IMG/VR virus record: IMGVR_UViG_3300044463_000016
Direction: 5' to 3' (one strand)
Length of the DNA: 49,704 nt
Source: a virus
Shown here: positions 4,520 through 27,639 of the stretch, piece by piece
Numbering within the stretch: position 1 is the stretch's first letter
How the letters are laid out: each line of letters begins with the position of its first letter
Program-made: the position numbers and the translations under genes
The notes under the pieces: model-generated
What the model saw: only the letters and a program-made list of their open reading frames with translations
Told to the model about the DNA's origin: nothing
Database searches by the model: none

Positions 4520-5611
4520 ATGAACGCCGAAATCAATGAATTTCCTCAAGATCCCACGGCCGGCGCGGCAGAGGGGGAAATAGTAGACGACAACCTGACC
4601 GTCAACGCCCTGGCGCGGCAGGAAGCTGGGAGCGGCCTGGCTGTCATTAAGGCGAAAAACGAGATCATCAAAGCGCTGCGGGATCACTCGATCGCCATGA
4701 CCGACCCGCAGGACTGGACTTTGTTCAAGAAGCCCGAAGACCAGGGCGGGTTGATTACAGCCTTTCTCGACGACTCAGGCTGTCAGCGCATCGCTCCACT
4801 GTGGGGCATCGACGTCACGCCCGAGGGCAACCGCGATTCTTTCCACGTCGAGCAGCTCAACGTCGGAGACGATTACCTGATCACCATTAGCGGAGACGCC
4901 TTCTGTCACACCACGGGAGCCACCATTCGCGGGATTGAGGGCTGCCGCGGCTCTGACGAGGACTTTGTCAAGCACGTCACAGGGACTCGGAAACTTTCCT
5001 ACGTCCGCAAGGCAGCGTTTGCAAACCTCTCAGGCGGGTGCGTTCGCAAGATCACAGGGCTGTCCAGTCTGCCGCTGTCGGAGCTAGAGCGCGTTTGGAA
5101 GCCACTCGGCAAGAACTGGCAGCACTGCAACAAGGGCCGTGGTTTCGGCGCTGCAGAGAAGCGCTTTGGGACCGGAGAGACGGGCACAGAGCCGAAATGC
5201 CCGAAGTGCAACGGGCCTATGAAACTCATCAAGCCGAAGCCAGGCGCGACATGGCAAGCCTTCTGGGGGTGCGGCCAGGGGAAAGACAAGTGCAAAGGAT
5301 CTGTGCAGGACGCCGATTGGCAGAAGGCCGTTGCGGCGCGCAAAGCCGCAGAGCCAGATACAGAGGCGGTCGCAGCTCCCGCAGAGGAAGCGCAGCGCGA
5401 GCCCGGCGACGCGCCAGCCGAGCCGAACGGCAAGCCACCTGGCGACGATACTGAACAGGCCATCGGGAAAATGAAATACCGGCTGCAGCAGCGCATTGCC
5501 GGCAAGCCCTGGCAGAAAGAGATCCTCGCGATGGTACTCAAGGCAAAAACTCTCGACGACCTGGTCGACCTGGAGACGGTGATCATCGATCGAGAAAAAG
5601 GAGGTGCCTGA
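4520..5611 (+). CDS. Putative single-strand annealing / recombination protein with C-terminal C4 zinc ribbon
   Basis: 363 aa with a strong SD (aaaaggagg). The segment KCPKCNGPMKL...FWGCGQGKDKCKG resembles a topoisomerase-type zinc finger. It is directly coupled (TGATG) to the downstream nuclease. Confidence 0.4.
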   Translation: MNAEINEFPQDPTAGAAEGEIVDDNLTVNALARQEAGSGLAVIKAKNEIIKALRDHSIAMTDPQDWTLFKKPEDQGGLITAFLDDSGCQRIAPLWGIDVTPEGNRDSFHVEQLNVGDDYLITISGDAFCHTTGATIRGIEGCRGSDEDFVKHVTGTRKLSYVRKAAFANLSGGCVRKITGLSSLPLSELERVWKPLGKNWQHCNKGRGFGAAEKRFGTGETGTEPKCPKCNGPMKLIKPKPGATWQAFWGCGQGKDKCKGSVQDADWQKAVAARKAAEPDTEAVAAPAEEAQREPGDAPAEPNGKPPGDDTEQAIGKMKYRLQQRIAGKPWQKEILAMVLKAKTLDDLVDLETVIIDREKGGA

Positions 5612-6690
5612 TGACCACAGCAACCGCAGTCGAACCCGAGCAGCTCGCTAGCGCGATGGTGAAAGCCTGCGAGCGGTTCGTTGAAACCGTGGAGGGACGG
5701 CCCAAGAGCGAGGACTCGAAGCCGTACATTCAACCCAATGTGTGGGCGGGCCAGTTCTCGAGCTGTGCCCGAGAGATGACGCTCCGGATGACGAAGAGCC
5801 ACGAGCTACCGCCGTTCAAGCCTGAGCAGCTCGCACGGTTTCGCCGCGGGAAAGATCGGGCCCGCAATGTGAAATCGGACCTGGAACAAGCGGGGCGCGA
5901 CGCGAAACCCTCGTTTGAGTTGATCGGCGCGGAGGAGCGATTCGAGGTGCGCGAGAGCGACGTCGTTGTCATTACCGGAAAGGTGGACTGGAAAACCCGG
6001 TTCGCCATTCCTGGAACGCGGCCGATCCCGACCGAATACAAGAGCTGGTCGCCCTTCCTGACTGACAGGATTGAGCGCTTCGAAGATTTGTTCGAGAACC
6101 GGTGGACGAGGAAAGGAGCCTATCAGTTGCTCGCCTATATGTGGGCGATGGGCAGCGAAATCGGCTTCCTGGTTCTCGATCGGCCCGGGATCCCAAAGAT
6201 TCTGCCCGTCTCACTGTTCGCCAACGAAAACGCCAACCTGGCGCGCGTCGAGAAATTTCTCATCCTGGCCGCGACGGCCGTCAAGCACAAGAACGCGGGT
6301 ACGCTGCCCGGCTACATCCAGGACGTTGAGGTCTGCAAAGCCTGCGATTTCCTCGGATCCCACTGCCAGCCGCCGATGCTGGCCGGCGCCGGCGCGAAGA
6401 TGTTTACCGACGAGTTTCGAATGCACCACGTTCAACGCTACTGGGAGATCGTCGAAGCCGGCAAGGAGTACGCGAAGCTCTGGGACGTGATCAAAGAGGA
6501 CTTCCGCGGCGTGGAATACGGGCTCTGCAGCGAGACGCTGATCCAAGGCAAGTACGGCAAGAACACGACGGTTGTTGTACCTCCGGAGCACCAGGCCCTT
6601 TACGACTCATGGAAGAAAGTCGATCTGAAAGGCAAGTTCACTCTGAAGCTCACCCGGCTCGGAACGGCCAAGGAGGCGGACGAATCATGA
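5611..6690 (+). CDS. PD-(D/E)XK exonuclease, Cas4/RecB-like with Fe-S cysteine cluster
   Basis: 359 aa. Nuclease motifs are GKVDW, EYKSW and QLLAYMW. Cysteines are SSC(A) near the N-terminus plus CKACDFLGSHC near the C-terminus, the typical Cas4/AddB 4Fe-4S pattern. Confidence 0.75.
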   Translation: MTTATAVEPEQLASAMVKACERFVETVEGRPKSEDSKPYIQPNVWAGQFSSCAREMTLRMTKSHELPPFKPEQLARFRRGKDRARNVKSDLEQAGRDAKPSFELIGAEERFEVRESDVVVITGKVDWKTRFAIPGTRPIPTEYKSWSPFLTDRIERFEDLFENRWTRKGAYQLLAYMWAMGSEIGFLVLDRPGIPKILPVSLFANENANLARVEKFLILAATAVKHKNAGTLPGYIQDVEVCKACDFLGSHCQPPMLAGAGAKMFTDEFRMHHVQRYWEIVEAGKEYAKLWDVIKEDFRGVEYGLCSETLIQGKYGKNTTVVVPPEHQALYDSWKKVDLKGKFTLKLTRLGTAKEADES

Positions 6691-8777: not shown

Positions 8778-10916
8778 TTGTTGATCCAAGCCGACAGCCG
8801 GCATCTACCCGTCAAGACCGCCAGCGTGCAATGCGTCGTGACCAGCCCGCCGTACTGGGGCCTGCGCGACTACGGCCTGCCACCAAGCGTGTGGGGTGGA
8901 GACCCGGAGTGTGGGCATGACTTCGACCAGCGCCGCTACTACACAGAATCAAGCGCTGCGAAGTCAAATGGGAGCGCTGAGGCTTTCTCGAAAGCCGGGC
9001 CTGACAACGCGAGGAGACTGAAAGAAGCACGCTGGAGAACAGATGCTTTTTGCCGCCAGTGCGACGCTTGGCGCGGCTGCCTCGGGCTGGAACCGACTCC
9101 AGAACTCTATTTGACATACATGGTCGCTGTCTTCCGGGAAGTGCGCCGCGTCTTGAGGAACGATGGGACGCTCTGGCTGAATATCGGAGATTCGTACAAT
9201 GCGCACCCAGGCCAAAGAACCGAGCACGACAAAGCCGGATGGAAGCAAGCCAGCAATCGTGGATCGTGCGAAACTGCAAGCCGTTCAACTACTGGCCTCA
9301 AGCCTAAAGACCTCGTAGGCATCCCGTGGCGCGTCGCGTTCGCGCTCCAGGCCGACGGCTGGTACCTTCGCTCTGACATCATCTGGAGCAAGCCCAACGC
9401 GATGCCGGAGAGCGTGACTGACAGGCCGACGAAGAGTCACGAGTACCTTTTTCTGCTGGCAAAGTCGGAGAGATATTTCTACGAAGCGGATGCGATCAGG
9501 GAATCCGCTAATGGCTGGAATGGTTCTCGCTTTGAAGATGGTAAGAATCTGATGGTGCATCCAAACGTAGGGAAGAATAGACCGAGTGCTGAACGCGGCT
9601 CCTTCAACGGCAAGACTGAAGCGATGGCCGACGAGGGACGCAACGCCTTCCGAGCCGTCACAGGGACCCGCAACAAGCGCTCGGTCTGGACAATCGCAAC
9701 TCAGCCCTACAGTGGAAGCCACTTCGCCTGCGTCGATGAAGAGACTGAGTGCCTGACATCAACTGGATGGAAGAGCCATTCTGATCTTCAGCCAGGAATG
9801 CTTGGAGCACAGTTCAACCTCACGACCGGCAAAATGTCCTGGGCTCCAATCGAAGATATTGCGCGTTACGAAGTTAGCAGCCAGAACATGGTAGTGGGAT
9901 CGTGTCGAGATATGGACATGTGGCTGACGCCAAACCATCGCACTGTGATTCAGCGCAGGCACTCTAGTACCAGGAAATGGCAACAGCCAACGATTATCCT
10001 CGCTGAAGGATTGAAAGCCTCACACAGTGTACCGACTGCCGCCGATTGGTCGTTTGAGGGAGATGCGACAACGCCGCTGGAATGGGCCGAACTACTTGGT
10101 TGGTATGTGGCGGAAGGGCACGAGTCTAAAAATTGTCTAACCGTTGAAATCTACCAGAGTGCCGCCGCTAATGGGCCTAAATGCCGACGGATTGAAGAGT
10201 TACTGAGACAGACTGGAGCAGAATGGACAAAAGCCACATGCAAAAGAACCTGGCTTGATCGGGACGCTGACATGACGGCTTATCGCGTGATGGGCTATGC
10301 CGCTGTCAGGCTGCGCGAGATGGCACCGGGGAAGCGCCTCCCCTGGGGAACGGTTCTTTGGTCGCATGATCGGATTGCGGCTCTGCTTGCCGGTCTCATA
10401 GATGGTGATGGTCACGAACGGGCTGATGACGGGCGTAGATGCTTTGTCCAAAAAGATAATGACCAATGCGGTTTGGTTCAGGCGCTTTCTTTGCGACTAG
10501 GAATGTCTGCAACTGTCGGCCTGCACAAAGATAGCGGCTGCGGCATCGTCTATCTCACAAGTCATAAAACACGCTCGTTTCGTGGCACGAATGGTGCTGG
10601 ATCACCACCGAGCATTCAGAAATATACAGGCGTCGTTTGGTGCCCGAAACTCCCTGATGGGACTTGGATGGCACGTCGCAACGGCAAGCCATTCATCACA
10701 GGCAACACCTTCCCTGAGAAGCTCGTTGAAATCTGCCTGCTCGCCGGGTCCCGACCGGGAGATCTCGTCTTCGACCCATTCGTCGGGAGCGGCACGGTGA
10801 TCCGGGTCGCGACCAGGTTACAGCGGAAAGGGGTTGGCTGTGATCTCAGTTGGGACTATCTGGACAAACAGGCAGACAAGCGCATGAGAGACGTGCAGGT
10901 GGAGCTGCAATACTGA
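8778..10916 (+). CDS. N4/N6 DNA methyltransferase (beta class) precursor containing an intein
   Basis: 712 aa with a TTG start 9 nt after ggagg. Motif IV TSPPYWGL is near the N-terminus. SHFA ... TFPEKL and motif I VFDPFVGSGT are at the C-terminus. A 326-aa in-frame insertion splits the conserved HFATFP box. Confidence 0.85.
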   Translation: MLIQADSRHLPVKTASVQCVVTSPPYWGLRDYGLPPSVWGGDPECGHDFDQRRYYTESSAAKSNGSAEAFSKAGPDNARRLKEARWRTDAFCRQCDAWRGCLGLEPTPELYLTYMVAVFREVRRVLRNDGTLWLNIGDSYNAHPGQRTEHDKAGWKQASNRGSCETASRSTTGLKPKDLVGIPWRVAFALQADGWYLRSDIIWSKPNAMPESVTDRPTKSHEYLFLLAKSERYFYEADAIRESANGWNGSRFEDGKNLMVHPNVGKNRPSAERGSFNGKTEAMADEGRNAFRAVTGTRNKRSVWTIATQPYSGSHFACVDEETECLTSTGWKSHSDLQPGMLGAQFNLTTGKMSWAPIEDIARYEVSSQNMVVGSCRDMDMWLTPNHRTVIQRRHSSTRKWQQPTIILAEGLKASHSVPTAADWSFEGDATTPLEWAELLGWYVAEGHESKNCLTVEIYQSAAANGPKCRRIEELLRQTGAEWTKATCKRTWLDRDADMTAYRVMGYAAVRLREMAPGKRLPWGTVLWSHDRIAALLAGLIDGDGHERADDGRRCFVQKDNDQCGLVQALSLRLGMSATVGLHKDSGCGIVYLTSHKTRSFRGTNGAGSPPSIQKYTGVVWCPKLPDGTWMARRNGKPFITGNTFPEKLVEICLLAGSRPGDLVFDPFVGSGTVIRVATRLQRKGVGCDLSWDYLDKQADKRMRDVQVELQY
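9729..10706 (+). mobile_element. Intein with LAGLIDADG homing-endonuclease domain
   Basis: Starts at Cys (CVDEETECLTSTG, block A). Has WLTPNHRTV (block B TxxH) and two LAGLIDADG motifs (LLGWYVAEGH and LLAGLIDGDGH). Ends ...KPFITGN followed by Thr. Excision restores SHFATFPEKL. Confidence 0.85.
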
Positions 10917-11307: not shown

Positions 11308-11436
11308 ATGGTCGTTGGGGAGATCGTCGAGGCGCACAATCAGTCGATGGATTGGTGGGACACTCTCCACGGTGAAAAACAGCAAGCGCTCTACCAGCGG
11401 CAGGTTGCGCAGCCGCCAAGGAGGGGGGAGAGATGA
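11308..11436 (+). CDS. Small ORF (42 aa), start uncertain
   Basis: MVVGEIVEAHNQSMDWWDTLHGEKQQALYQRQVAQPPRRGER. Its TGA overlaps the next ATG (ATGA). The frame stays open back to 11230 with only GTG 11287 as an alternative start. Confidence 0.35.
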   Translation: MVVGEIVEAHNQSMDWWDTLHGEKQQALYQRQVAQPPRRGER

Positions 11437-11849
11437 AAGTGTATGTCGCTAGTTCGTGGAGAAATCAGTATCAGCCTCAAGTCGTCGCTGCTCTTCGCGC
11501 TGAAGGTCATGAGGTCTATGATTTCAGGGATGCTGACGGCTTCCATTGGTCAGAAGTCGATCATCGGTGGAAGGAATGGAATCCAGCCGCATATCTTCAT
11601 GGACTGCATCATGAATACGCTGAGAGAGGCTTTAACCGAGATATGAAGGCATTGCGCGAGAGCGAGGTGTGTATCTACGTGATGCCTTGTGGGGTGTCTG
11701 CGAGCCTTGAAGCAGGATGGGCGTGCGGCGCTGGCAAGAGAGTCTTTGTGTTCGCGCCTGAACTCAAAGAACCCGACCTAATGGTGAAGATGGCGGAGTG
11801 CTGTACGAATGATTTCAACTCTATACTTCGTGCAATAGCCCCGGCCTAA
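11433..11849 (+). CDS. Nucleoside 2-deoxyribosyltransferase-fold protein
   Basis: 138 aa. MKVYVASSWRN ... GVSASLEAGWACGAGKRVFVF fits the NDT-like pattern (PF05014/PF15891-type) as I remember it. SD is aaggagggggg. Confidence 0.6.
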   Translation: MKVYVASSWRNQYQPQVVAALRAEGHEVYDFRDADGFHWSEVDHRWKEWNPAAYLHGLHHEYAERGFNRDMKALRESEVCIYVMPCGVSASLEAGWACGAGKRVFVFAPELKEPDLMVKMAECCTNDFNSILRAIAPA

Positions 11850-16216: not shown

Positions 16217-19200
16217 TTACCTCCCTGGTTGAACCTGTGGCTCATTGCGCCGGCTTTCACGCTCGAGCTTTCGGAAACTCGAGGGCGACTGCGTCCGGGC
16301 CCGCATCATCTCGCCCAAGAGCCTTTCATACTCCGCGGGGCTCAAGATCTTTCGATACTCCATCAGGAGCCTTTCTTTCTCGGTGTTCGATTGGGCGTTG
16401 ATGATCGCCTCCAGATACGGATTGCCTGGCACACGCGCGGCCCATCGAAAATAGCGGCTCTGAAATTCCGTTTCGCTCACGTCGCGGCTCACCTTGCCCT
16501 CGCTCCGTAGCTCCCGATAGAGTTGTCGCATGTCGCCGCGGTCTGGCTTCCCCTTGGCTTTCACGGCCGCGTTGATGGATTTCTGTATCCGGCCTTGGAC
16601 GTCGAGAGTCCCGGCCGCTTTTTCCTGTCGAACCTCCTGGCGCACGTCGCGCAGCCGATCGGCGATTCCCTGGTCGCTGATCTTGAGGAAGGCGCCAAGG
16701 ATGTTGCCGGGGAACGAGCGGAGGATTTCCTCGACCGGGGTTTTCGTCTTGACGAGTTCGTTGCGAGCCGGGTCGTACAGCACCGTGCCGCCCAACTCGC
16801 GCCAGGAGTGCTTTGCTAGCCCACTGGCAGCCGCAGTGCCTCCCGCTTCAAACTCCAGATCAGTCAGAACGGGCCGCCCGCGCCACTCATCGGTGGGGTT
16901 GTTGCCGTAGCCGTAGTAATCGAGGAGGTCTCCGCCGACTTTCAGGTAGGGATTCAACTTGGTCGGGCTCCACGGCACTTGCTCTGCAGTGAGATTGACT
17001 GCGCCGCCTTTCCCCATAACTCTGCCATGCGCTAACTTCCAAGCCAGCGCGCTCCAGAACTGGCCTTCATAGTCTTCTGGAATGCGCAGGTAAATCGATT
17101 TGCCGTTTTTGTCGAGGCCAAGCGGAATTGACGTGTAATTCGATTTGTCATACTCAGACATTCCGTCGATGATCCGCTTCAGAATTGAGCCCCCAAGCCC
17201 AGCCGCACCAGCAGCCAGGAGAAGCTTTGGCAGCATGTTCGCCGCCACCGTCTTCCACGCATAGCCGGAGCGGTCCTCGTTGAATGATTCCCAAGACGAG
17301 CGCCAGCCTTCCTTGTTCACATTTGAAAACAGGAACAAGTTATTAGTCAGCGCCTGCGCTTCTCCTTGGCGTTTAATATCAGGCGTTGCAGCCCTGGTTC
17401 TGACAACGTGCCCGATTTCCTTCTGAGTCCTCCAGCCTGGCTTGAGGTACTTAAAAGCGGCGATCTTCCCCGGAATTTCTGACAAGCGACCAAGCCGGTT
17501 CAAGTAATCCGATAGCTTGGCAAGTTTTGCGCGTGCTCCGGAAGCTTCGCGCGCCGCGCCCGTGTCGACTAGAAACTCAGCCGCCTGCCGTTCCAGCTCA
17601 TTTTCAAAGGTCTGCTCCCTCGCCTCATAGGCCCTGCCAGGCAGCAGCATCCGCCCGCGTTGCATCTCGCCAATGTCCTCGCTCCGCTCCCCTTTCATCA
17701 GATAGCGCCAGGCTTCACGGAAAGCATCGTTGTACGCGCGCGCCAGGCGAGCCGCGTCCTTCGGGTTCAAGGCCCCGATCTCCGGCAGGTTTTTGTAGGT
17801 TTGCCGGATGTCACGGAAAACGTTGCGCGCCATCCAGAGCGGGTTTTTCGCCACGAAGATATCCCGGAGTAGCGACATACCCGAAGCCATCACCTCGGCG
17901 ATCTTGGTCGCCTCGAACGGTTGGGCCTCGTAAGACTTTGCAATCGCCTCGCTCACGTAGACGTGAACCGGCTTGCCTTTGTCAAGGTAGGTCATCAGCG
18001 CTTGCCGCGGGTTCGCCGGCTCCTTCGGTACACGGGCGCCGACGTTCGCGTCCCACTTCATTTCTGCCGGCGTGAAAGCCTCTGGATCGTTCAGCCGGAA
18101 ATGGTCGATCAGTGACCGCTTCGACTCATTCACCTTCGCCGATCGCAAAACAGCCATATCCTGAAGAGCCGTGACCACCAGCGGATTCTCAATGCCTGAC
18201 AGCGTTCCCACTTGCTTGTAGACACGCGCGGACACGCCCGGCCCATAGGTCTTATCCAGCCAGTGGGAGACGCCAAACCGCACGTAAGCCTTGTGGTCTT
18301 TCATCAGCTCGATCAGCTCTGGCGAGTAGATCCCAGAAGCCTCGGCGCGCGGGATGATCAGATCCTCGCGCAACCGACGAAACTCGGCAGCCGCTTCCTC
18401 CAACTTTCCAAACTTCTCCGCGCCGAGCTCCGTCTTCATGCCGTCGAGCGTCTTCCGCGCCGTCGCTTCGCTGTACCCCAGCGGGTTGCCCATCAGCTCG
18501 CGTTCGCCCTCGGCGATGCGAGTCAAGAATTGATAAGTCCCGAGCTGGTCCGGCGTGAGACCCGCTTTGCGGATCGGTTGCAGGACCTGGCTGCCAATAT
18601 CTTCCAGGTAGTTGCCAGCCTCGCTGGCTAGGTACTGGATTTCCTCCAAGTCGTAGCGTGCCTCGCTGGCAGCCGCACCCATGATGCCGCCCTGCCTTTC
18701 GCCCTTGCGGACGGATTTGAGGGCCCCTTGGCTGCGATCGATCAATTTGCGCATCAGCCAGTTCGTAGCATCCTCCACGCGCGACCTGCGCCGCTTGTTC
18801 AGCTCCTCACGGCGATTGCGTCCTTCCTCGAACATGTCCTCGACGCGTCCCAGCCGCGGAGGAATGTTGCCGCCTCCCCCGCCGCCGAGCCGGGCTTGGA
18901 TGTCGTCATAACTCTCCTTCACGTCTGGCTTGCGCTCCATGTAGTTGAAGATTCCCCGCCAGAAGTTTGGTGCCATCTGCTGTAGCTTGTCTGGCTCGTT
19001 CATCAGCACGGAGAAGGCGTCCGCGTAGAGTTCCTTGCCGGAATAGCGGTAATCCCGATACTTCGGATCAACCATATCCTCGTTGAACGGCTTCCAGTAC
19101 TGAGTCACAGCCTTGAGCTCGTCGCTCACCGTTTCGTTTTCCAGCAACGCCCGTTTGCGGATCTCCTCGATGATCAACTCGCGATACTTCTTGGACACTT

Positions 19201-22200
19201 CTTTGGGATCCGGCTTGCCCTTGCGACGGAGCACGCGGCCTGTCTTTTCCATCGTGACTTTGGTTGGAAAGTCCGGGAACACGGGCGGGCCGGGCGTCTT
19301 GCCTTTCATGGCTTCGACGACAACCTGCTTCTTGGTCGCGCGATCAAGCCGCGCGATGTACTCATAAAGCCGCTTGTCGATGCCTTCGGCGCTGGCGACC
19401 GTGTTCCGCCAAATAGCGAGGACCTCATCGGGGGTGTAGGGCGTCTCTTTCTTGATCACTTCATCGATGCCGATCTCGGCGTCGGTCTTTAACGCGTCAT
19501 TCGCCAACTTGCGAATTCGCCGGCGATCCTTGTCGGTCAGCCCTGCCGGGCCGCCAGGCCAGCCAGGAAGCGTATGCTTCAGGTGTTCTTTCAGCGAAGC
19601 GATGCGGCCCAGCAGATTGCCGCGATCCAGCATCTGGTGAGTGTCCGGATCTTTCGAGTCCGCCACCCAGTCGATCAAGTGGCCCAGTTCGTGAGCCATC
19701 ACCTTGGGCGCAAGCGTCGGATCTTTCCGGTAGGCGAGGAATTCCCACATTCCCTTTCGCCGGTTGTATTCCTTGGTGAAGTGCAGATCCGCTTCAGGGA
19801 TGCCGCTCGACTGCCGAATGCGCTGCTTGAACTCATCAAACGCCTCAGCCGACCCTTTGGCAGGCACCACTTTCCTGGCCAGCCGTTCGCCGATGAACAG
19901 ATCGCGCCGCAGCTTGATGTCAGCAGCCGCGCCCGGCCCTTCTGTGTGGGTCATTCGTCCCAGGGCGCGACCTAAGAATTTCTTCAACGCCGGCAGCTTG
20001 CCCTCATTGATTGCCTGTGCAATCTCGACCAGCTCGGGCATCTCGACGCGCGCCCTTTCGAGATTGGCGTAAGCCGCCCGCTCCGGGCCAGGTCGCGCGG
20101 CTCCTGCTTCAGTTTCTGGGCCTTCCCTCTCGACGCGCGGCTCGACTGGTGCCAAGCCGGGCTTGTAGCCGCCTTCGGACGCTTCACCGCTGGGAGGCTT
20201 CTTCTCTGCGCCAAACATCTCGCCTTGAACGGTGGGCTCCTCGGTGCCAAACAGCGGGCCTCGGACGTCGCCCATGCGTCGAGTGACTTTGCCCTTTCCT
20301 GACCGGATCAGCTCAGCCTCGGCTTGCTTCCGGCTCTCGGCGGCCGCGTCTGCCATCCCTTTGGCAACGCTCTCCATCGTGACGGGGGGCTCCTCGGACT
20401 TTCGAGGTAGAACTTGTGGAGTAACGATCTTTGGCTGAAGAGACTGGTGGGCTCTTTCTTCAATGTTACGAGCCTGCTGCTCACCGGATTTGTAGGCTGT
20501 CTTCAGAGTCTGGACGATCTCAGCAGTAGGAGTCCCTTTCTGTACCAGTTGGATCGCGTGTTGAAGTGGAGTAACTGGAGTCTCAACCTTCGGTTCTGCT
20601 TTGGCTTCTTCGGGTGTCTCCTCGGGAGTGATAGTCGGCTCGGGGGTTTCCCGCTCCGGTATATTACTTGCGGGTAATCCTTCTCCGGGAACCTCGCGTT
20701 TGACTAGGGTCTCGGTGGGTTTTACTTCTGCGGGGGCTTCTGCTTTGACTTCTGGCTCTGCCGGCGCTTCAGCTCTTTCTGCTGGCGCGCCGAGCTTGAA
20801 TTGCATCCGCTCCGGTTCGAGGTCGAGATCCTTCAAGGGAACGCGGCTCACGTCCTCAAAAAGCGGCTTCCCCTTGCGTGTCAGCTTCCGGTACTTTTTG
20901 GCTGTCTCGCCGGCTTTGGCAGATCCCATAGCTGCGTCGGCTTCGGCCTGGGTGTCGCCAGCTCCACCGCGCAGGTAGTTGGAATATTCAGAGTCTCCGA
21001 TCGGGCGCTCTCCATAAATGGCCTTGGCACGTTCTACCAGCTCCGCCATGCTCCCTTTAGGCCCGATCGCATAGATTTCATCGCCCTTGGGGGTAAAAAC
21101 GCGCGGAGGGAGGCCAAGCTCCTTGGAAGCCTGGGCGACCGCCTCGGCCGCGGCCTTGATCTCTCGGTCGCCGGCTTGGGGACTATCCAGATCATTCCGA
21201 GCTTTCATGTTAGCCACGTCGAGCGAGGCAATCTCGGTCTCTGGGTCAAGTTCTGCTGTCGGAAGTGCTCGTTGCAGGGCCGCCGCACTGCCATAGCCGG
21301 TTTTCGGATGGACTTCAAGCTCGCGCCTGGCAACGTCGCGCTGCTCCTCGGCGGCTTCCTTCTGGCGGATCAGCTCCTCCACGTAGGGCTCGGCGGGCTT
21401 CAGGCGACCTCTGTGGCCTGGGATCCAGGTCTTTTCAATGGGCGCCGGTTCCCAACCGGGCGGGAGCGTCTCAGGAATTGCCGGTTTCGTTTCACCTAAA
21501 GCCCCTTCCGTCTCGACTTTGGGCTCCAACGTTCCACGTGGAGCCTTAGTCGTCTCAACGATTGGCTCCTCAAATGCGCGCGGCCTGATCGGTTCGGCTT
21601 CGACATTGAGGCGCGGCTCAGGTGTCCGTGCCCGTGGCGGGCCTTCGACGGTAATGCTTGGCTCAACAAACGCCTCGCCCTCTGCAAGCCGCCTTTGCCC
21701 ACCAGGAAGCGGTTGATCTGTCAGGATCTCGCCGGTCTTTGGCTCCGGTCGCGGCCTGAATCCTAAGAACTCCCCAGTTTTACGTACTGCCTCCCTCGCT
21801 CCTGGAAAGTCCTTATACTGTTTGCCGCCAAGTCCGGCCCCGTGAGCGCCAGTCAACCCAATCAACCCGCCCGCTGCCATCATTTGGCCGAGGATTCTTT
21901 CAGCCCCATCGATGTCGCCAGCGTCGAGAGCTGCCCTGAATTGCCGCCCTTGCTCCGGGAACTCTGACAGCATGTCCACGGAAAACCCGAGACTGACGGC
22001 CCTGCCCAGAGGCCCGGTTGCAAGTCTCATCAGTGCCCCGGAAGACCAGAGGGCTGCATTGCTCAGGCTTGGCGCTGTCAGCGAAGACAGGACATCGGCG
22101 ACGCCCTTGACCAGCGGCATGTCGTCGGGAGCAAATTCCGCGAAGTTAACCAGCGGAGCATTCCCCTCCGGCTCGATCTTTCCGCCTGCTTTCAGCTTGT

Positions 22201-22879
22201 CTTTCCAGGTGCCGAGAAAGGTCTCAGGGCCTTGCGTCGCCCGGTAAAAGTTTTCACCTTGCCCGGCTGCAGCCTGAAACTCCAGGTCTTGAGCTCCGAG
22301 CGTTGCGCTGGTGGCTTGCTGCTGCTCTACGGGCGGTATAGCTCCGGGCGGCGGGGCCGTAATGGGCTTGGTTCGGCTCACCATTCCAGGAGGGAGGTTG
22401 CGGATCTGCGAGCCAAACGGAACGCTGATATCTGCGGTCTGGCCAACTACGGGTGGGCGGTTGAGCTTTGAAAATACATCCAGCGGCACCACTGCGTTAG
22501 CAATTGGTCCCTTTGGTCTGAGAGGCCGTGGGGCAGAAATCCCCGCCTCGGGTACTGGCGCTGCGAGACGCTGTGGAGCGACCGAAGGCGGGGCTGCAAC
22601 CGGCCCAGGAAGAGGAGAGGCTCCCGGGTGCGTCCCGGCTGCCGATGTGGGTGGCGGTTGTACTTGAGGTTCTGTGGGCGGGGTAACGGTACGCGGAGGG
22701 CGGTAGGGCATATCCTCGGCTGGTGGCACCACAGTCCGGGGCGGACGGTAGGGCGCGTCGGTGATCTCCTGCTCGAAACCCGCGGGGAGTGTGTCGAAGG
22801 GGTTAGGGCGAGACTCCTCCCGAACGGATGTCTCCGGTTCAAACCCTTTCGGCAGCAGTGTTAGCGCGCTGGTACCCAT
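16217..22879 (-). CDS. Giant polyvalent virion/ejection protein (2220 aa) with HExxH zincin motif
   Basis: A single uninterrupted ORF. The N-terminus is Pro-rich with a tandem PYRPPRTV(V/T)PP repeat. There is a degenerate GGDEF-like segment at aa 523-665. The MAHELGHLIDW zincin motif (nt 19679-19693) has a distal ELYADAFSVLM segment. The remaining roughly 900-aa C-terminal region is uncharacterised. Confidence 0.8.
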   Translation of the reverse strand: MGTSALTLLPKGFEPETSVREESRPNPFDTLPAGFEQEITDAPYRPPRTVVPPAEDMPYRPPRTVTPPTEPQVQPPPTSAAGTHPGASPLPGPVAAPPSVAPQRLAAPVPEAGISAPRPLRPKGPIANAVVPLDVFSKLNRPPVVGQTADISVPFGSQIRNLPPGMVSRTKPITAPPPGAIPPVEQQQATSATLGAQDLEFQAAAGQGENFYRATQGPETFLGTWKDKLKAGGKIEPEGNAPLVNFAEFAPDDMPLVKGVADVLSSLTAPSLSNAALWSSGALMRLATGPLGRAVSLGFSVDMLSEFPEQGRQFRAALDAGDIDGAERILGQMMAAGGLIGLTGAHGAGLGGKQYKDFPGAREAVRKTGEFLGFRPRPEPKTGEILTDQPLPGGQRRLAEGEAFVEPSITVEGPPRARTPEPRLNVEAEPIRPRAFEEPIVETTKAPRGTLEPKVETEGALGETKPAIPETLPPGWEPAPIEKTWIPGHRGRLKPAEPYVEELIRQKEAAEEQRDVARRELEVHPKTGYGSAAALQRALPTAELDPETEIASLDVANMKARNDLDSPQAGDREIKAAAEAVAQASKELGLPPRVFTPKGDEIYAIGPKGSMAELVERAKAIYGERPIGDSEYSNYLRGGAGDTQAEADAAMGSAKAGETAKKYRKLTRKGKPLFEDVSRVPLKDLDLEPERMQFKLGAPAERAEAPAEPEVKAEAPAEVKPTETLVKREVPGEGLPASNIPERETPEPTITPEETPEEAKAEPKVETPVTPLQHAIQLVQKGTPTAEIVQTLKTAYKSGEQQARNIEERAHQSLQPKIVTPQVLPRKSEEPPVTMESVAKGMADAAAESRKQAEAELIRSGKGKVTRRMGDVRGPLFGTEEPTVQGEMFGAEKKPPSGEASEGGYKPGLAPVEPRVEREGPETEAGAARPGPERAAYANLERARVEMPELVEIAQAINEGKLPALKKFLGRALGRMTHTEGPGAAADIKLRRDLFIGERLARKVVPAKGSAEAFDEFKQRIRQSSGIPEADLHFTKEYNRRKGMWEFLAYRKDPTLAPKVMAHELGHLIDWVADSKDPDTHQMLDRGNLLGRIASLKEHLKHTLPGWPGGPAGLTDKDRRRIRKLANDALKTDAEIGIDEVIKKETPYTPDEVLAIWRNTVASAEGIDKRLYEYIARLDRATKKQVVVEAMKGKTPGPPVFPDFPTKVTMEKTGRVLRRKGKPDPKEVSKKYRELIIEEIRKRALLENETVSDELKAVTQYWKPFNEDMVDPKYRDYRYSGKELYADAFSVLMNEPDKLQQMAPNFWRGIFNYMERKPDVKESYDDIQARLGGGGGGNIPPRLGRVEDMFEEGRNRREELNKRRRSRVEDATNWLMRKLIDRSQGALKSVRKGERQGGIMGAAASEARYDLEEIQYLASEAGNYLEDIGSQVLQPIRKAGLTPDQLGTYQFLTRIAEGERELMGNPLGYSEATARKTLDGMKTELGAEKFGKLEEAAAEFRRLREDLIIPRAEASGIYSPELIELMKDHKAYVRFGVSHWLDKTYGPGVSARVYKQVGTLSGIENPLVVTALQDMAVLRSAKVNESKRSLIDHFRLNDPEAFTPAEMKWDANVGARVPKEPANPRQALMTYLDKGKPVHVYVSEAIAKSYEAQPFEATKIAEVMASGMSLLRDIFVAKNPLWMARNVFRDIRQTYKNLPEIGALNPKDAARLARAYNDAFREAWRYLMKGERSEDIGEMQRGRMLLPGRAYEAREQTFENELERQAAEFLVDTGAAREASGARAKLAKLSDYLNRLGRLSEIPGKIAAFKYLKPGWRTQKEIGHVVRTRAATPDIKRQGEAQALTNNLFLFSNVNKEGWRSSWESFNEDRSGYAWKTVAANMLPKLLLAAGAAGLGGSILKRIIDGMSEYDKSNYTSIPLGLDKNGKSIYLRIPEDYEGQFWSALAWKLAHGRVMGKGGAVNLTAEQVPWSPTKLNPYLKVGGDLLDYYGYGNNPTDEWRGRPVLTDLEFEAGGTAAASGLAKHSWRELGGTVLYDPARNELVKTKTPVEEILRSFPGNILGAFLKISDQGIADRLRDVRQEVRQEKAAGTLDVQGRIQKSINAAVKAKGKPDRGDMRQLYRELRSEGKVSRDVSETEFQSRYFRWAARVPGNPYLEAIINAQSNTEKERLLMEYRKILSPAEYERLLGEMMRARTQSPSSFRKLERESRRNEPQVQPGR

Positions 22880-25495: not shown

Positions 25496-25960
25496 CTACC
25501 CTCCAGTCCCGATCAGTTTTTGCCCTGCAAGCGCAGAGGGCAAAGTAGGATTTTGATGCAACTGCGGTTTGGTCCAGTTCTCCCAAGTATCTGCCCGAAC
25601 CCATCCAAGCCGAGCGAGCAGCGTCTTGAAGCGTTCCATCCTGGCTCCGTCCGGCAACTGGGCGAAGCAATCCTGAATCCCCTTCGCGGCCATGTCACTT
25701 TCGCTGGCCAGGTGCAGTGCCAAGAAATTCCGAATTCGATCAAGGGGCGTCCCCGCGTCCGGAAACATCAACAGAAACATCTCAGCACTGAGCCTGCCCA
25801 TGATTGCCATGACGGCCCGGCCCTGCTCGTCCTCGACTACCAGCCGGGAAAAGAACTCGCTGTGGTCCCAATTATGTTCAATGTAGTCGAAGCCCTGCGC
25901 GAGATACATCTCATGCAGCGCCTGCCGATCGGTCTCCGAGTGGTATTGGCGAATCCTCAT
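25496..25960 (-). CDS. GNAT-fold (acetyltransferase-like) protein, degenerate
   Basis: ORF trimmed to ATG 25960 (ATGA overlap with the fibre gene stop). MRIRQYHSETDRQALHEMY... and ...LLARLGWVR resemble the ends of a GNAT domain. The canonical Q/RxxGxG/A loop is not evident. Confidence 0.4.
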   Translation of the reverse strand: MRIRQYHSETDRQALHEMYLAQGFDYIEHNWDHSEFFSRLVVEDEQGRAVMAIMGRLSAEMFLLMFPDAGTPLDRIRNFLALHLASESDMAAKGIQDCFAQLPDGARMERFKTLLARLGWVRADTWENWTKPQLHQNPTLPSALAGQKLIGTGG

Positions 25961-27639
25961 GGAAGTTCTTCGATAATGATGTGCGTGCAAACGAAAGTTG
26001 GTCCAGCCGCCCCGAATTGGGTCGTGATGTTGACGGGCAGCGCCGCTGTAAGATCTAGGGTGATTGGAGCTGTTTGCACTAAGCCCCATAATTCGTGATC
26101 TGCCGTACCGATCATCTGGCCAACCAAGTTAATCTGATCTTCTACGAAAGTTCGAAGATCAACAGGAAATGCTCGGCCTTTAGGATTGGGCCAATCAGAC
26201 AGCGCAAACGGCTTCTCGAAAATAATGGAAAGAACAGTTTCGAGAAGATTGCTGTCCCATTGGCGCAGAGAGATTGGATGCTGTTTGCCGCGCGGATTGG
26301 GCCAATCATAGATGGGAGCCTGCCCTGCGGCTCCAAAGAATTGGTCTTGGCTGCGCAGGTTTAGTTTGAGCTGGTCAAGGAAGCCGCGAAGGTCTGTTGG
26401 GAATGACTGTCCTCTTGGATTGGGCCAGTCTGACATCGAGAATGGATTCTGGCCCCCGAGGGTTGTCAGTAGCAGGTTCAGCCAAGTTTGCGAATCAACG
26501 ACCCGCGCAGAGCCTCTCGGGTTCTGCCAGTCATAAGTCTGAGGTTGGCCCGCCGCCCCGAAAAACTGGTCCTGATTCAATAGGTTCAGTTTTATGGGAT
26601 CTAGCCAGGTGCGCAGAATACTCGCAGCGATTTGTCCTTTTGGCACTGGCCAATCAGACAAATTAAAAGGTTGAACACCCGCAAGAGTAGACTCCAGCAG
26701 ATTGATCAGCCAAGTCTGCAAGTCAATGACGCGTGCACTACCTCTTGGGTTGGGCCAGTCGTAGGTCGGCACTTGTCCGGCTGCGCCGAAGAATTGGTCC
26801 TGGCTGCGCAGGTTCAACTTAAGTTGATCAAGCCAAGTTCGCAGGCTAATGACGGGAGTTGCGCCTCTGGGGTTTGGCCAATCGCTCATTGAGAAAGGAG
26901 CTGCGAATGTGAGCAGCGTATTGAGCAGATTGCCGACATCCCAATGGCGGAGGCTGATGGGGTGGGTCCGACCTTTAGGAACGGGCCAGTCAAATGTTGG
27001 TGATCCTGCAAGCCCGAAGAACTGATCTTGACCCTGAAGATTAAGCTTTAGGGATTCAGCCCAAGTTTTCAGGTCGATGCTGGGAACAGAGCCGCGCGGG
27101 ACAGGCCAGTCAAAGTTAGGATTACCCGCTAGCCCAAAGAAAGCGTCCTGTCCTGCTAGATTTAGTTGAACCTGATGCAGCCAAGTACGCAAATCCAGCG
27201 ATGGCACATATCCCTTCGGAACTGGCCAATCGGCAAGACCAAATGGAGCGAATGCAGCCAGCGTTGTCTGCAATAGGTTGTTGTCCCATTGTCGCAGGCT
27301 TATAGCTGGAGGGGGACCCGGTGGATTTGGCAGGCTATGAGCCGGAACCTGGCCGGGGTCTCCGAAAAACCTATCTTTTCCAATCAGGTTGAGTTTGAGC
27401 GGATCGATCCAGGTCTTAAGCGCGATGCCGGGCTGAGCCTTGGAGCTAACATGCCATCCTACTGGGTTTGGCCAGTCGTAGTTTGGGCCTCTCCCAGCCC
27501 CGTCAAAGAATTTATCCTGACTCCTTAACGTGTTCAGGAGCGGGTTCTGCCAGACTCTTCCTTCTGATTCCAGAGCAGCATGCCCCGGAAAACGTGGCTC
27601 AATCTTCGTGATTAGTGGTGGGCGAAAGAGGGTAGCCAT
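25957..27639 (-). CDS. Tail fibre/spike protein built from WPxP(R/K)G repeats
   Basis: 560 aa. About 12 copies of (Y/S/F)DWP(N/V)P(R/K)G are spaced roughly 40 aa apart. Two linker types alternate: LKLNLxxQDQFFGAAG and NLLxTxLxxxxPF. The C-terminal 62 aa are unique. Confidence 0.65.
   Translation of the reverse strand: MATLFRPPLITKIEPRFPGHAALESEGRVWQNPLLNTLRSQDKFFDGAGRGPNYDWPNPVGWHVSSKAQPGIALKTWIDPLKLNLIGKDRFFGDPGQVPAHSLPNPPGPPPAISLRQWDNNLLQTTLAAFAPFGLADWPVPKGYVPSLDLRTWLHQVQLNLAGQDAFFGLAGNPNFDWPVPRGSVPSIDLKTWAESLKLNLQGQDQFFGLAGSPTFDWPVPKGRTHPISLRHWDVGNLLNTLLTFAAPFSMSDWPNPRGATPVISLRTWLDQLKLNLRSQDQFFGAAGQVPTYDWPNPRGSARVIDLQTWLINLLESTLAGVQPFNLSDWPVPKGQIAASILRTWLDPIKLNLLNQDQFFGAAGQPQTYDWQNPRGSARVVDSQTWLNLLLTTLGGQNPFSMSDWPNPRGQSFPTDLRGFLDQLKLNLRSQDQFFGAAGQAPIYDWPNPRGKQHPISLRQWDSNLLETVLSIIFEKPFALSDWPNPKGRAFPVDLRTFVEDQINLVGQMIGTADHELWGLVQTAPITLDLTAALPVNITTQFGAAGPTFVCTHIIIEELP
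26146..27543 (-). repeat. Coding tandem-repeat array (about 120-nt period, diverged)
   Basis: Recurrent tgggccagtc / tggccaatc words on the + strand correspond to the DWPNP motif codons. The protein-level periodicity is clear. Confidence 0.7.

Follow-up and report, generated by a model that had tools for sequence, protein, structure and literature searches.

What is the segment of 326 codons that divides the DNA methyltransferase gene of the uncultured phage sequence IMGVR_UViG_3300044463_000016, and does its product leave the protein again? The DNA analysed here, the whole of which (49,704 nucleotides, nt) is referred to as the window, contains on its plus strand an open reading frame (ORF), 8778-10916, encoding 712 amino acids (aa). 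The product is an N6/N4 DNA methyltransferase, matched by the Pfam family PF01555 (N6_N4_Mtase; E 1e-40) in two separated stretches. A preliminary description of the sequence had proposed a LAGLIDADG intein at 9729-10706, and all the features that it listed are found where it placed them. There is little doubt that the insert is a true intein, able to splice now or until recently. Its identity and boundaries, its fold and family, its sporadic distribution and the signature of its mobility are documented below. The intein represents a new example within a large, already described lineage of phage inteins and leaves current concepts unchanged.

The insert covers 978 nt, is in frame with the surrounding ORF and contains no stop codons. 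Its junctions read SHFA|CVDEETE and FITGN|TFPEKL, and excision joins SGSHFA to TFPEKLVEIC. The rejoining of SHFA to TFPEKL had been anticipated and matches the uninterrupted sequence of intein-less homologues; AHFATFPEKLVEPC is unbroken in all ten that were aligned (51-59% identity). When the N-extein (317 aa) and C-extein (69 aa) were joined in silico, PF01555 matched in one stretch (profile positions 1-217 of 221, 155.7 bits, E 2.2e-45), as against two stretches and 140.5 bits before splicing. Every one of the 8000 candidates scored with the spliced query proved to be a methyltransferase homologue at E<=1e-20; among the best 120, lengths of 360-470 aa predominate. Among viruses, the 80 best IMG/VR loci for relatives of the N-extein comprise 78 with an uninterrupted, HFATFP-type motif, one (L057) that carries this insert in the identical position and one that is truncated. 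The comparison with intein-less alleles suggested by the preliminary description thus found unbroken genes in both sets. That the insert might be a domain conserved across all homologues is excluded by the 78 viral relatives that do without it. The identical junction occurs in the independent contigs L057 and L085, and P0037, from an independent metagenome, combines an extein fragment 98% identical to that of the window with an identical intein. A near-identical intein-less phage, sought in IMG/VR as a sign of recent invasion, was not found, the best relatives there being about 50-60% identical; nor was a second copy of the intein found within the window.

An AlphaFold2 model of the insert, computed from 24 family sequences, reached a mean predicted local distance difference test (pLDDT) score of 95.6 and a predicted template modelling (pTM) score of 0.92. 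In the model, beta-strands at both ends enclose a helical/beta middle domain; the N- and C-terminal segments together are predicted to form a HINT fold, and the two LAGLIDADG helices each end in an acidic residue within an endonuclease fold. Foldseek searches against the PDB ranked intein-endonucleases at the top (TliVMA, E 1.8e-15, with PhoVMA, PI-SceI and PI-PfuI, down to 1e-10 and with TM scores of about 0.6-0.66), followed, for the middle domain, by I-DmoI and I-SceI (both at E about 5e-6) and by WhiA. PI-SceI, TliVMA/PhoVMA, PI-PfuI and PI-PkoII share the two-domain architecture and fold of the window intein at a sequence identity of only 9-15%. Unlike it, these canonical LAGLIDADG inteins have a penultimate His, Asp at F:4 and extra DNA-recognition regions. 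At the sequence level, a word-indexed search located the insert in 36 proteins. When 1.84 billion cluster representatives were searched exhaustively with phmmer, 5428 matched at E<=1e-3; of these, 1883 had E<=1e-10 and 189 had E<=1e-30. Like the structural match to solved inteins, this goes well past anything that chance would produce. Of the 150 matches listed, almost all span residues 1-326 inside larger proteins and a few are N-terminally truncated fragments. A profile of 20 sequences, run against the PDB, recovered PI-PkoII (3.7e-9), the AceL NrdHF intein (1.5e-8), TliVMA and the RecA and DnaX mini-inteins.

Several observations weigh against this identification. Neither Pfam Intein_splicing (PF14890) nor the NCBIfam intein models match the insert at E<=1, LAGLIDADG_3 scores 21.4 bits, just under its cut-off of 22.5, and a single-sequence phmmer search of the insert against the PDB gave no match. 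The insert also has no His at F:13 of block F and lacks the canonical one at the penultimate position. Finally, the Thr at +1 is a weaker nucleophile than Cys. As fold and homology are decisive, we read the failure of the curated models as a gap in sensitivity rather than as evidence against an intein. In the comparison with intein hidden Markov models (HMMs) put forward in the preliminary description, the curated splicing models fail, while the family phmmer and Foldseek searches do match inteins. Many close homologues of the intein carry a precomputed assignment to PF14528, and PF14890, run on two relatives from the same clade, scored under its gathering cut-off or gave no match.

The same gap extends to the clade as a whole, which the Pfam Intein_splicing and NCBIfam models miss almost entirely despite its 5428 representative clusters. 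Many of its proteins are unannotated or named just "DNA modification methylase". Since standard intein HMMs miss them, such genes are routinely mis-described, and the clade constitutes an annotation blind spot. In the present case, annotation should record one gene for a 386-aa methyltransferase plus a mobile 326-aa intein rather than a 712-aa "methylase".

The fold also bears on the notion that no protein-level element exists here at all, the insert being an in-frame group I intron, a free-standing homing-endonuclease gene or an assembly chimera. LAGLIDADG genes do frequently lie in introns, and the base composition of the insert at third codon positions differs from that of its flanks. However, the modelled HINT beta-strands at both ends of the insert flank the endonuclease, the frame runs through without a stop or shift, and the two independent contigs share the junction. 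About 160 independent sequences, from many host sites, also agree in the junction residues (C1...N|T). We regard this explanation as practically negligible.

The positions of the exteins and of the catalytic motifs are given in Table 1, where residue counts refer to 163 full-length family inteins in 155 proteins.

Table 1. Exteins, intein and intein motifs of the methyltransferase gene, in window coordinates.
Feature	Position	Strand	Support
N-extein, 317 aa	8778..9728	+	PF01555 match; aligned with intein-less homologues; motif IV TSPPYW; end SGSHFA
Intein, 326 aa: HINT splicing domain with nested LAGLIDADG homing endonuclease	9729..10706	+	Exact-boundary insertion, AlphaFold2, Foldseek, family search
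Cys1 (block A:1), N-terminal splice nucleophile, TGC	9729..9731	+	Cys in 163/163
Block B, LTPNHR: Thr67 (B:7), His70 (B:10), Arg71 (B:11); Thr72 at B:12	9924..9941	+	TxxH in 155/163; Arg at B:11 in 148/163; Trp at B:12 in 11/163
LAGLIDADG motif 1, LLGWYVAEG, catalytic Glu129	10092..10118	+	Sequence; fold matches I-DmoI, I-SceI
LAGLIDADG motif 2, LLAGLIDGDG, catalytic Asp227	10383..10412	+	D227 and G228 invariant; sub-threshold LAGLIDADG_3 match lies here
Start of block F, VVWCP; Cys305 (10641-10643) at F:4	10632..10646	+	Trp-Cys pair, with Cys at F:4, in 161/163
Block G, FITGN: Thr324 (G:5), Gly325 (G:6), Asn326 (G:7)	10692..10706	+	Thr at G:5 in 159/163; at G:6, Gly in 161 and His in 2
Thr+1, codon ACC	10707..10709	+	Sequence; family +1 residue Thr 113, Ser 44, Cys 5 (162 total)
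C-extein, 69 aa and stop	10707..10916	+	TFPEKLVEIC start; motif I DPFVGSGT

Asn at the terminal position (G:7) never varies in the alignments of 24 and of 20 sequences. At T67, H70, R71, C305, T324, G325, N326 and T+1 the window intein coincides with the clade consensus, and both LAGLIDADG acidic residues, E129 and D227, are intact. As the preliminary description had noticed, the penultimate His (G:6) usual in inteins is replaced by Gly, at residue 325. Because nearly all family inteins have Gly there, this residue is a trait of the clade; judged by the alignment, so are the other unusual residues, rather than being defects. Within the clade, the Gly co-occurs with Cys1, TxxH-Arg, the F:4 Cys and the G:5 Thr. 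Functional inteins without a penultimate His are on record (PMC5050341, PMC7891396, PMC4031507). The intein of Bethlehem gp51, a recombination directionality factor (RDF), has a native penultimate Gly and splices to completion; its G316H derivative is slower and accumulates precursor (PMC5050341). The Bethlehem intein, which interrupts a metallophosphoesterase and reads GNHD|CSWT...ANHR...VWC...HLTGN|S, has the C1, xNHR, VWC and TGN signature in common with the window intein, to which it is only 24% identical (BLASTP E 8e-9). It differs in its host site (GNHD|S in a phosphoesterase), in a degenerate second LAGLIDADG motif and in having Ser at +1.

These data also speak to the possibility that the insert has decayed or been domesticated and no longer splices, making the methyltransferase a pseudogene or leaving the insert with an endonuclease or DNA-binding role only. 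The absence of the penultimate His and the silence of the curated HMMs would fit such a state, and phage inteins without function are known, Arsp-FB24 Arth_1007 being one (PMC3196547). Nevertheless, every catalytic position follows the clade consensus, the reading frame is open, both LAGLIDADG acids are in place, and P0037 preserves the identical intein in another metagenome; moreover, Gly at G:6 is the functional state in the relatives that were tested. A non-splicing insert is therefore highly improbable.

How, then, might the intein splice? The chemistry and the endonuclease activity described here are read from conserved residues and from characterised relatives. By that reading and by analogy, a class 1 route is the one we consider probable, with moderate confidence. 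The HINT domain would fold within the 712-aa precursor, and Cys1, aided by Thr67 and His70 of block B, would turn the Ala(-1)-Cys1 peptide bond into a thioester. The N-extein would then be transferred to Thr+1, cyclisation of Asn326 would free the intein, and an O-to-N shift would yield the 386-aa methyltransferase with SHFA-TFPEKL restored just upstream of FxGxG. Block-B Arg71 most likely compensates for the absent penultimate His, as does the equivalent Arg69 in the AceL NrdHF intein, and Cys305 of block F may assist, and possibly relay, the acyl transfer.

The last residue raises the question of class. In a class-3-like route, Cys305 would be the obligatory first nucleophile, a branched thioester at block F would pass the N-extein on to Thr+1, and Cys1 would either not be needed or have a relaying or regulatory role. 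The clade does show the hallmarks of Cys at F:4, Thr at G:5 and mostly Thr or Ser at +1 (PMC2807308, PMC5222942), F:4 being the branch-point position of class 3 inteins (PMC2807308). The nearest solved relative of the splicing domain by profile, with the E-value of 1.5e-8 given above, is the class 3 intein AceL NrdHF; it, too, has the xxH-R motif, the P-G kink region and the TGN end, and it likewise lacks Trp at B:12 (PMC7891396). The 11 clade members with Trp at B:12 possess the full WCT triplet in addition to Cys1; in the window intein, Cys305 (F:4) and Thr324 (G:5) of this triplet are present and Thr72 occupies B:12. On the other hand, class 3 is defined by a missing N-terminal nucleophile, and the window intein has Cys1, a residue whose presence in every family member argues that it is used. 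Trp at B:12 is absent, the related RDF intein was treated as class 1 by Kelley et al. (PMC5050341), and Cys is the second commonest residue at F:4 among inteins generally (PMC4031507). Given Cys1 and the missing Trp, full membership in class 3 was rejected. Obligatory initiation by Cys305 itself, the chief competitor of the class 1 route, seems to us possible, if somewhat unlikely.

The comparison with AceL NrdHF deserves to be set out in full. Hoffmann et al. (2020) described this phage-derived split intein (PDB 6ZGQ; PMC7891396), which is accepted as class 3 with Met at B:12. It carries Ala1, S65-x-x-H68-R69-M70, Cys124 at F:4, a Pro128-Gly129 kink, no F:13 His and the ending T144-G145-N146|S (PMC7891396). 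Arg69 hydrogen-bonds the carbonyl at the C-terminal scissile bond, partly standing in for the penultimate His, and G145H abolishes activity through a clash with Arg69 (PMC7891396). The profile match between the two inteins lies in the N-terminal HINT lobe. Common to both are an (S/T)xxH-R block B without Trp at B:12, the F:4 Cys, the Pro/Gly kink of block F, the lack of His at F:13 and G:6, the T-G-N end, Ser or Thr at +1 and a phage-derived metagenomic origin; apart from Cys1, the window intein thus displays the AceL NrdHF constellation. In contrast, AceL NrdHF has Ala1 (and is truly class 3), is naturally split, has no nested endonuclease but a GIY-YIG gene between its halves, and resides in the beta subunit of ribonucleotide reductase (RNR).

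One scenario would accommodate both sets of traits. The clade counts thousands of relatives and keeps Cys1, Cys at F:4, Thr at G:5, Arg at B:11 and Gly at G:6 across more than 150 clusters. It could be a "standard phage intein" lineage still in existence, with class 3 inteins such as AceL NrdHF descended from it after Cys1 was lost. Members of the clade would then use a hybrid relay, from Cys1 to Cys305 to Thr+1, or allow either cysteine to initiate. We hold this to be quite unlikely. If true, a hybrid mechanism would blur the boundary between classes 1 and 3, and a hybrid lineage would bear on how class 3 could arise from class 1, the question addressed by Beyer et al. (2020) (PMC7664689). 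With its fixed G:6 Gly, B:11 Arg and F:4 Cys, the clade offers possible test cases for that transition.

Returning to the class 1 route that we favour, its outcome matters for the host enzyme. The unspliced precursor is probably inactive, judging from the sequence, because the insert splits a motif just before the S-adenosylmethionine (AdoMet)-binding FxGxG. The preliminary description went further and supposed that splicing gates anti-restriction methylation. This is speculative and regulation is unsupported. In the two characterised relatives with this Gly, splicing is both rapid and complete (PMC5050341, PMC7891396). Conditional splicing, for instance under redox control through a Cys1-Cys305 disulfide, would make the intein a switch that delays or gates the methyltransferase during infection. 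Besides the split motif next to the AdoMet pocket and the likely inactivity of the precursor, the two invariant cysteines in the active site would suit such a switch, as would the disulfide-bonded precursor conformers observed for the related RDF intein (PMC5050341) and the redox sensitivity of class 3 DnaB inteins (PMC6195587). Yet the rapid and complete splicing of the native-Gly relatives argues against it, and a sporadic, homing-type distribution (one of 80 viral relatives) suits a selfish element better than a conserved regulator. We judge such gating improbable. Since the two tested relatives splice fast, cis-splicing members of the clade with Thr at +1 are possible ligation tools.

Evidence for mobility comes from comparing intein and exteins. 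The intein of P0001 is 74.7% identical to that of the window, as against 44.7% and 45.0% for the exteins; for P0002 the corresponding values are 67.9% and 42.9%. The G+C content at third codon positions (GC3) is 0.515 in the intein; the two exteins stand at 0.678 and 0.739, and the majority of the window's long ORFs at about 0.67-0.75. These sequence comparisons demonstrate a signature of horizontal transfer and mark the intein as being of foreign origin. The DNA at the junction of intein-less alleles retains the core GCnCACTTyGCn|ACnTTyCC, a plausible candidate for the homing target. The nested LAGLIDADG enzyme, with Glu129 and Asp227, would cut intein-less alleles at this sequence, and the intein would be copied in by homing. 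The predicted cleavage target is the intein-less junction AGCCACTTCGCC|ACCTTCCCTGAG, and the predicted homing substrate, an intein-less allele, reads AGTGGAAGCCACTTCGCC|ACCTTCCCTGAGAAGCTC. Homing of this kind would explain both the sporadic distribution of the intein and its spread among divergent methyltransferases.

The insertion point, which had been thought unusual, is in fact the one used by 124 of the 163 closest family members, located exactly at H-x-A|T/S-F-P. By sequence, metagenomic members of the clade use H-x-A|T-F-P more than any other site, and the motif is a hot spot of the lineage among uncultured phages; no description of an intein at this site was found in the searchable literature. 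Other host sites of the clade include a second methyltransferase site (WxYG|SGFPK), uracil-DNA glycosylase, metallophosphoesterase (GNHD|C), NrdD, DNA polymerase A, portal, terminase gpA and a ResIII helicase. In cultured phages, tblastn retrieved 105 records with related inteins, hosted by methyltransferases, nucleotidyltransferase, terminase large subunit (TerL), portal, Pol I, RtcB, RNR beta, NAMPT and ThyX.

A DNA methyltransferase had likewise been considered an unusual host. That view is wrong, since inteins in phage N6_N4 methyltransferases are already published (PMC5050341, PMC9957025), at the other site, WLYG|SGFPK. Kelley et al. (2016) reported 11 inteins from mycobacteriophage N6_N4 methyltransferases of two families, DNMT-1/2 (PMC5050341), and Gosselin et al. 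(2023) analysed the Dorothy_75 methylase intein (PMC9957025). The actinophage methyltransferase inteins (Dorothy_75, Lilac gp101 and Atcoo gp55; DNMT-1/2 in PMC5050341, analysed in PMC9957025) resemble the window intein in length (327-333 aa), in their LAGLIDADG endonuclease, in the pattern C1...TPNHR...VWC...ITGN|S/T and in residing in a PF01555 protein of a phage. Dorothy_75 is a full-length homologue, with 33% identity and an E-value of 2e-38. Unlike the window intein, those of actinophages come from cultured phages, lie at AWLYG|SGFPKSLD and interrupt another, much larger methyltransferase sub-family. The idea that the window intein is the actinophage methylase intein already published, in an unchanged site, was accordingly rejected: the two are homologous, but site and sub-family differ. 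With H-x-A|T-F-P, the insertion sites documented in phage DNA methyltransferases would number three or four.

Some intein-less alleles may be closed to the intein. Twelve of the 78 viral ones have Val at the would-be +1 position (HFAVFP; L008, L021, L034, L038, L059, L060, L063, L065, L073, L074, L076 and L077). As Val at +1 does not support splicing, a productive insertion would be impossible in these alleles, which may represent a form of immunity against intein invasion. In a related methyltransferase (L049:4001-4819 and downstream; IMG/VR 3300003690_000022), a low-complexity, non-intein insertion of about 200 aa immediately precedes HFAGFP, indicating that this loop of the enzyme tolerates other insertions as well.

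Related inteins have invaded the same methyltransferase family elsewhere, too. P0195 is interrupted at AW(K/R)G|SLGLEP and contains two inteins at once; P0240 is interrupted inside motif I, at DPFxG|SGT. The equivalent sequences of the window, DAWRG|CLGLEP (about 9063-9095) and DPFVG|SGT (about 10770-10793), are uninterrupted. A further clade member, in the DNA polymerase A fragment P0034, measures 231 aa (KPND|CFDTETE...FISGN|CHTINA). It seems to retain little of the LAGLIDADG domain and is possibly a naturally occurring mini-intein.

As to the host protein, it is a phage orphan-type, beta-class N6/N4 DNA methyltransferase. TSPPYW (motif IV) occupies aa 22-27, upstream of motif I in the C-extein, which is the order characteristic of the beta class. 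The motif split by the intein, directly upstream of the AdoMet-binding FxGxG, aligns in PDB comparisons with AHPTQKPEAL of CcrM (6PBD) and with HPAPFPAIL of an N4-cytosine methyltransferase (8S9M). CcrM, an N6-adenine enzyme, and the N4-cytosine methyltransferase match the host protein equally well (E about 1e-13); SPPY, rather than DPPY, at motif IV hints at N4-cytosine as the target. The N-extein also contains a nearly invariant Cys/His cluster (C45, H47, C92 and C95; CGHDF...CRQCDAW) that looks like a putative zinc-binding insertion.

The window itself is phage DNA, with genes for the terminase large subunit, a major head protein and a Holliday-junction resolvase. The TerL is only about 30-35% identical to those of Pelagibacter and Roseobacter phages. 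About 500 bp downstream of the methyltransferase gene lies a nucleoside 2-deoxyribosyltransferase-like gene (11433-11849, plus strand; phrog_12607, E 4.5e-47), which may be part of a nucleotide or DNA-modification module. ORF 5611-6690, also on the plus strand, has a weak PHROG match termed "CRISPR/Cas system associated" (phrog_1706, E 8e-8), and its product is probably a Cas4/RecB-like exonuclease. This type of exonuclease itself hosts inteins in mycobacteriophages. On the minus strand, an ORF of 560 aa (25957-27639) matches no PHROG and has a GC3 of 0.53, as low as that of the intein and well under the value of about 0.7 for the window; it may be another recently acquired gene. The minus strand also contains, in the structural region, a very long ORF of 2220 aa (16217-22879).

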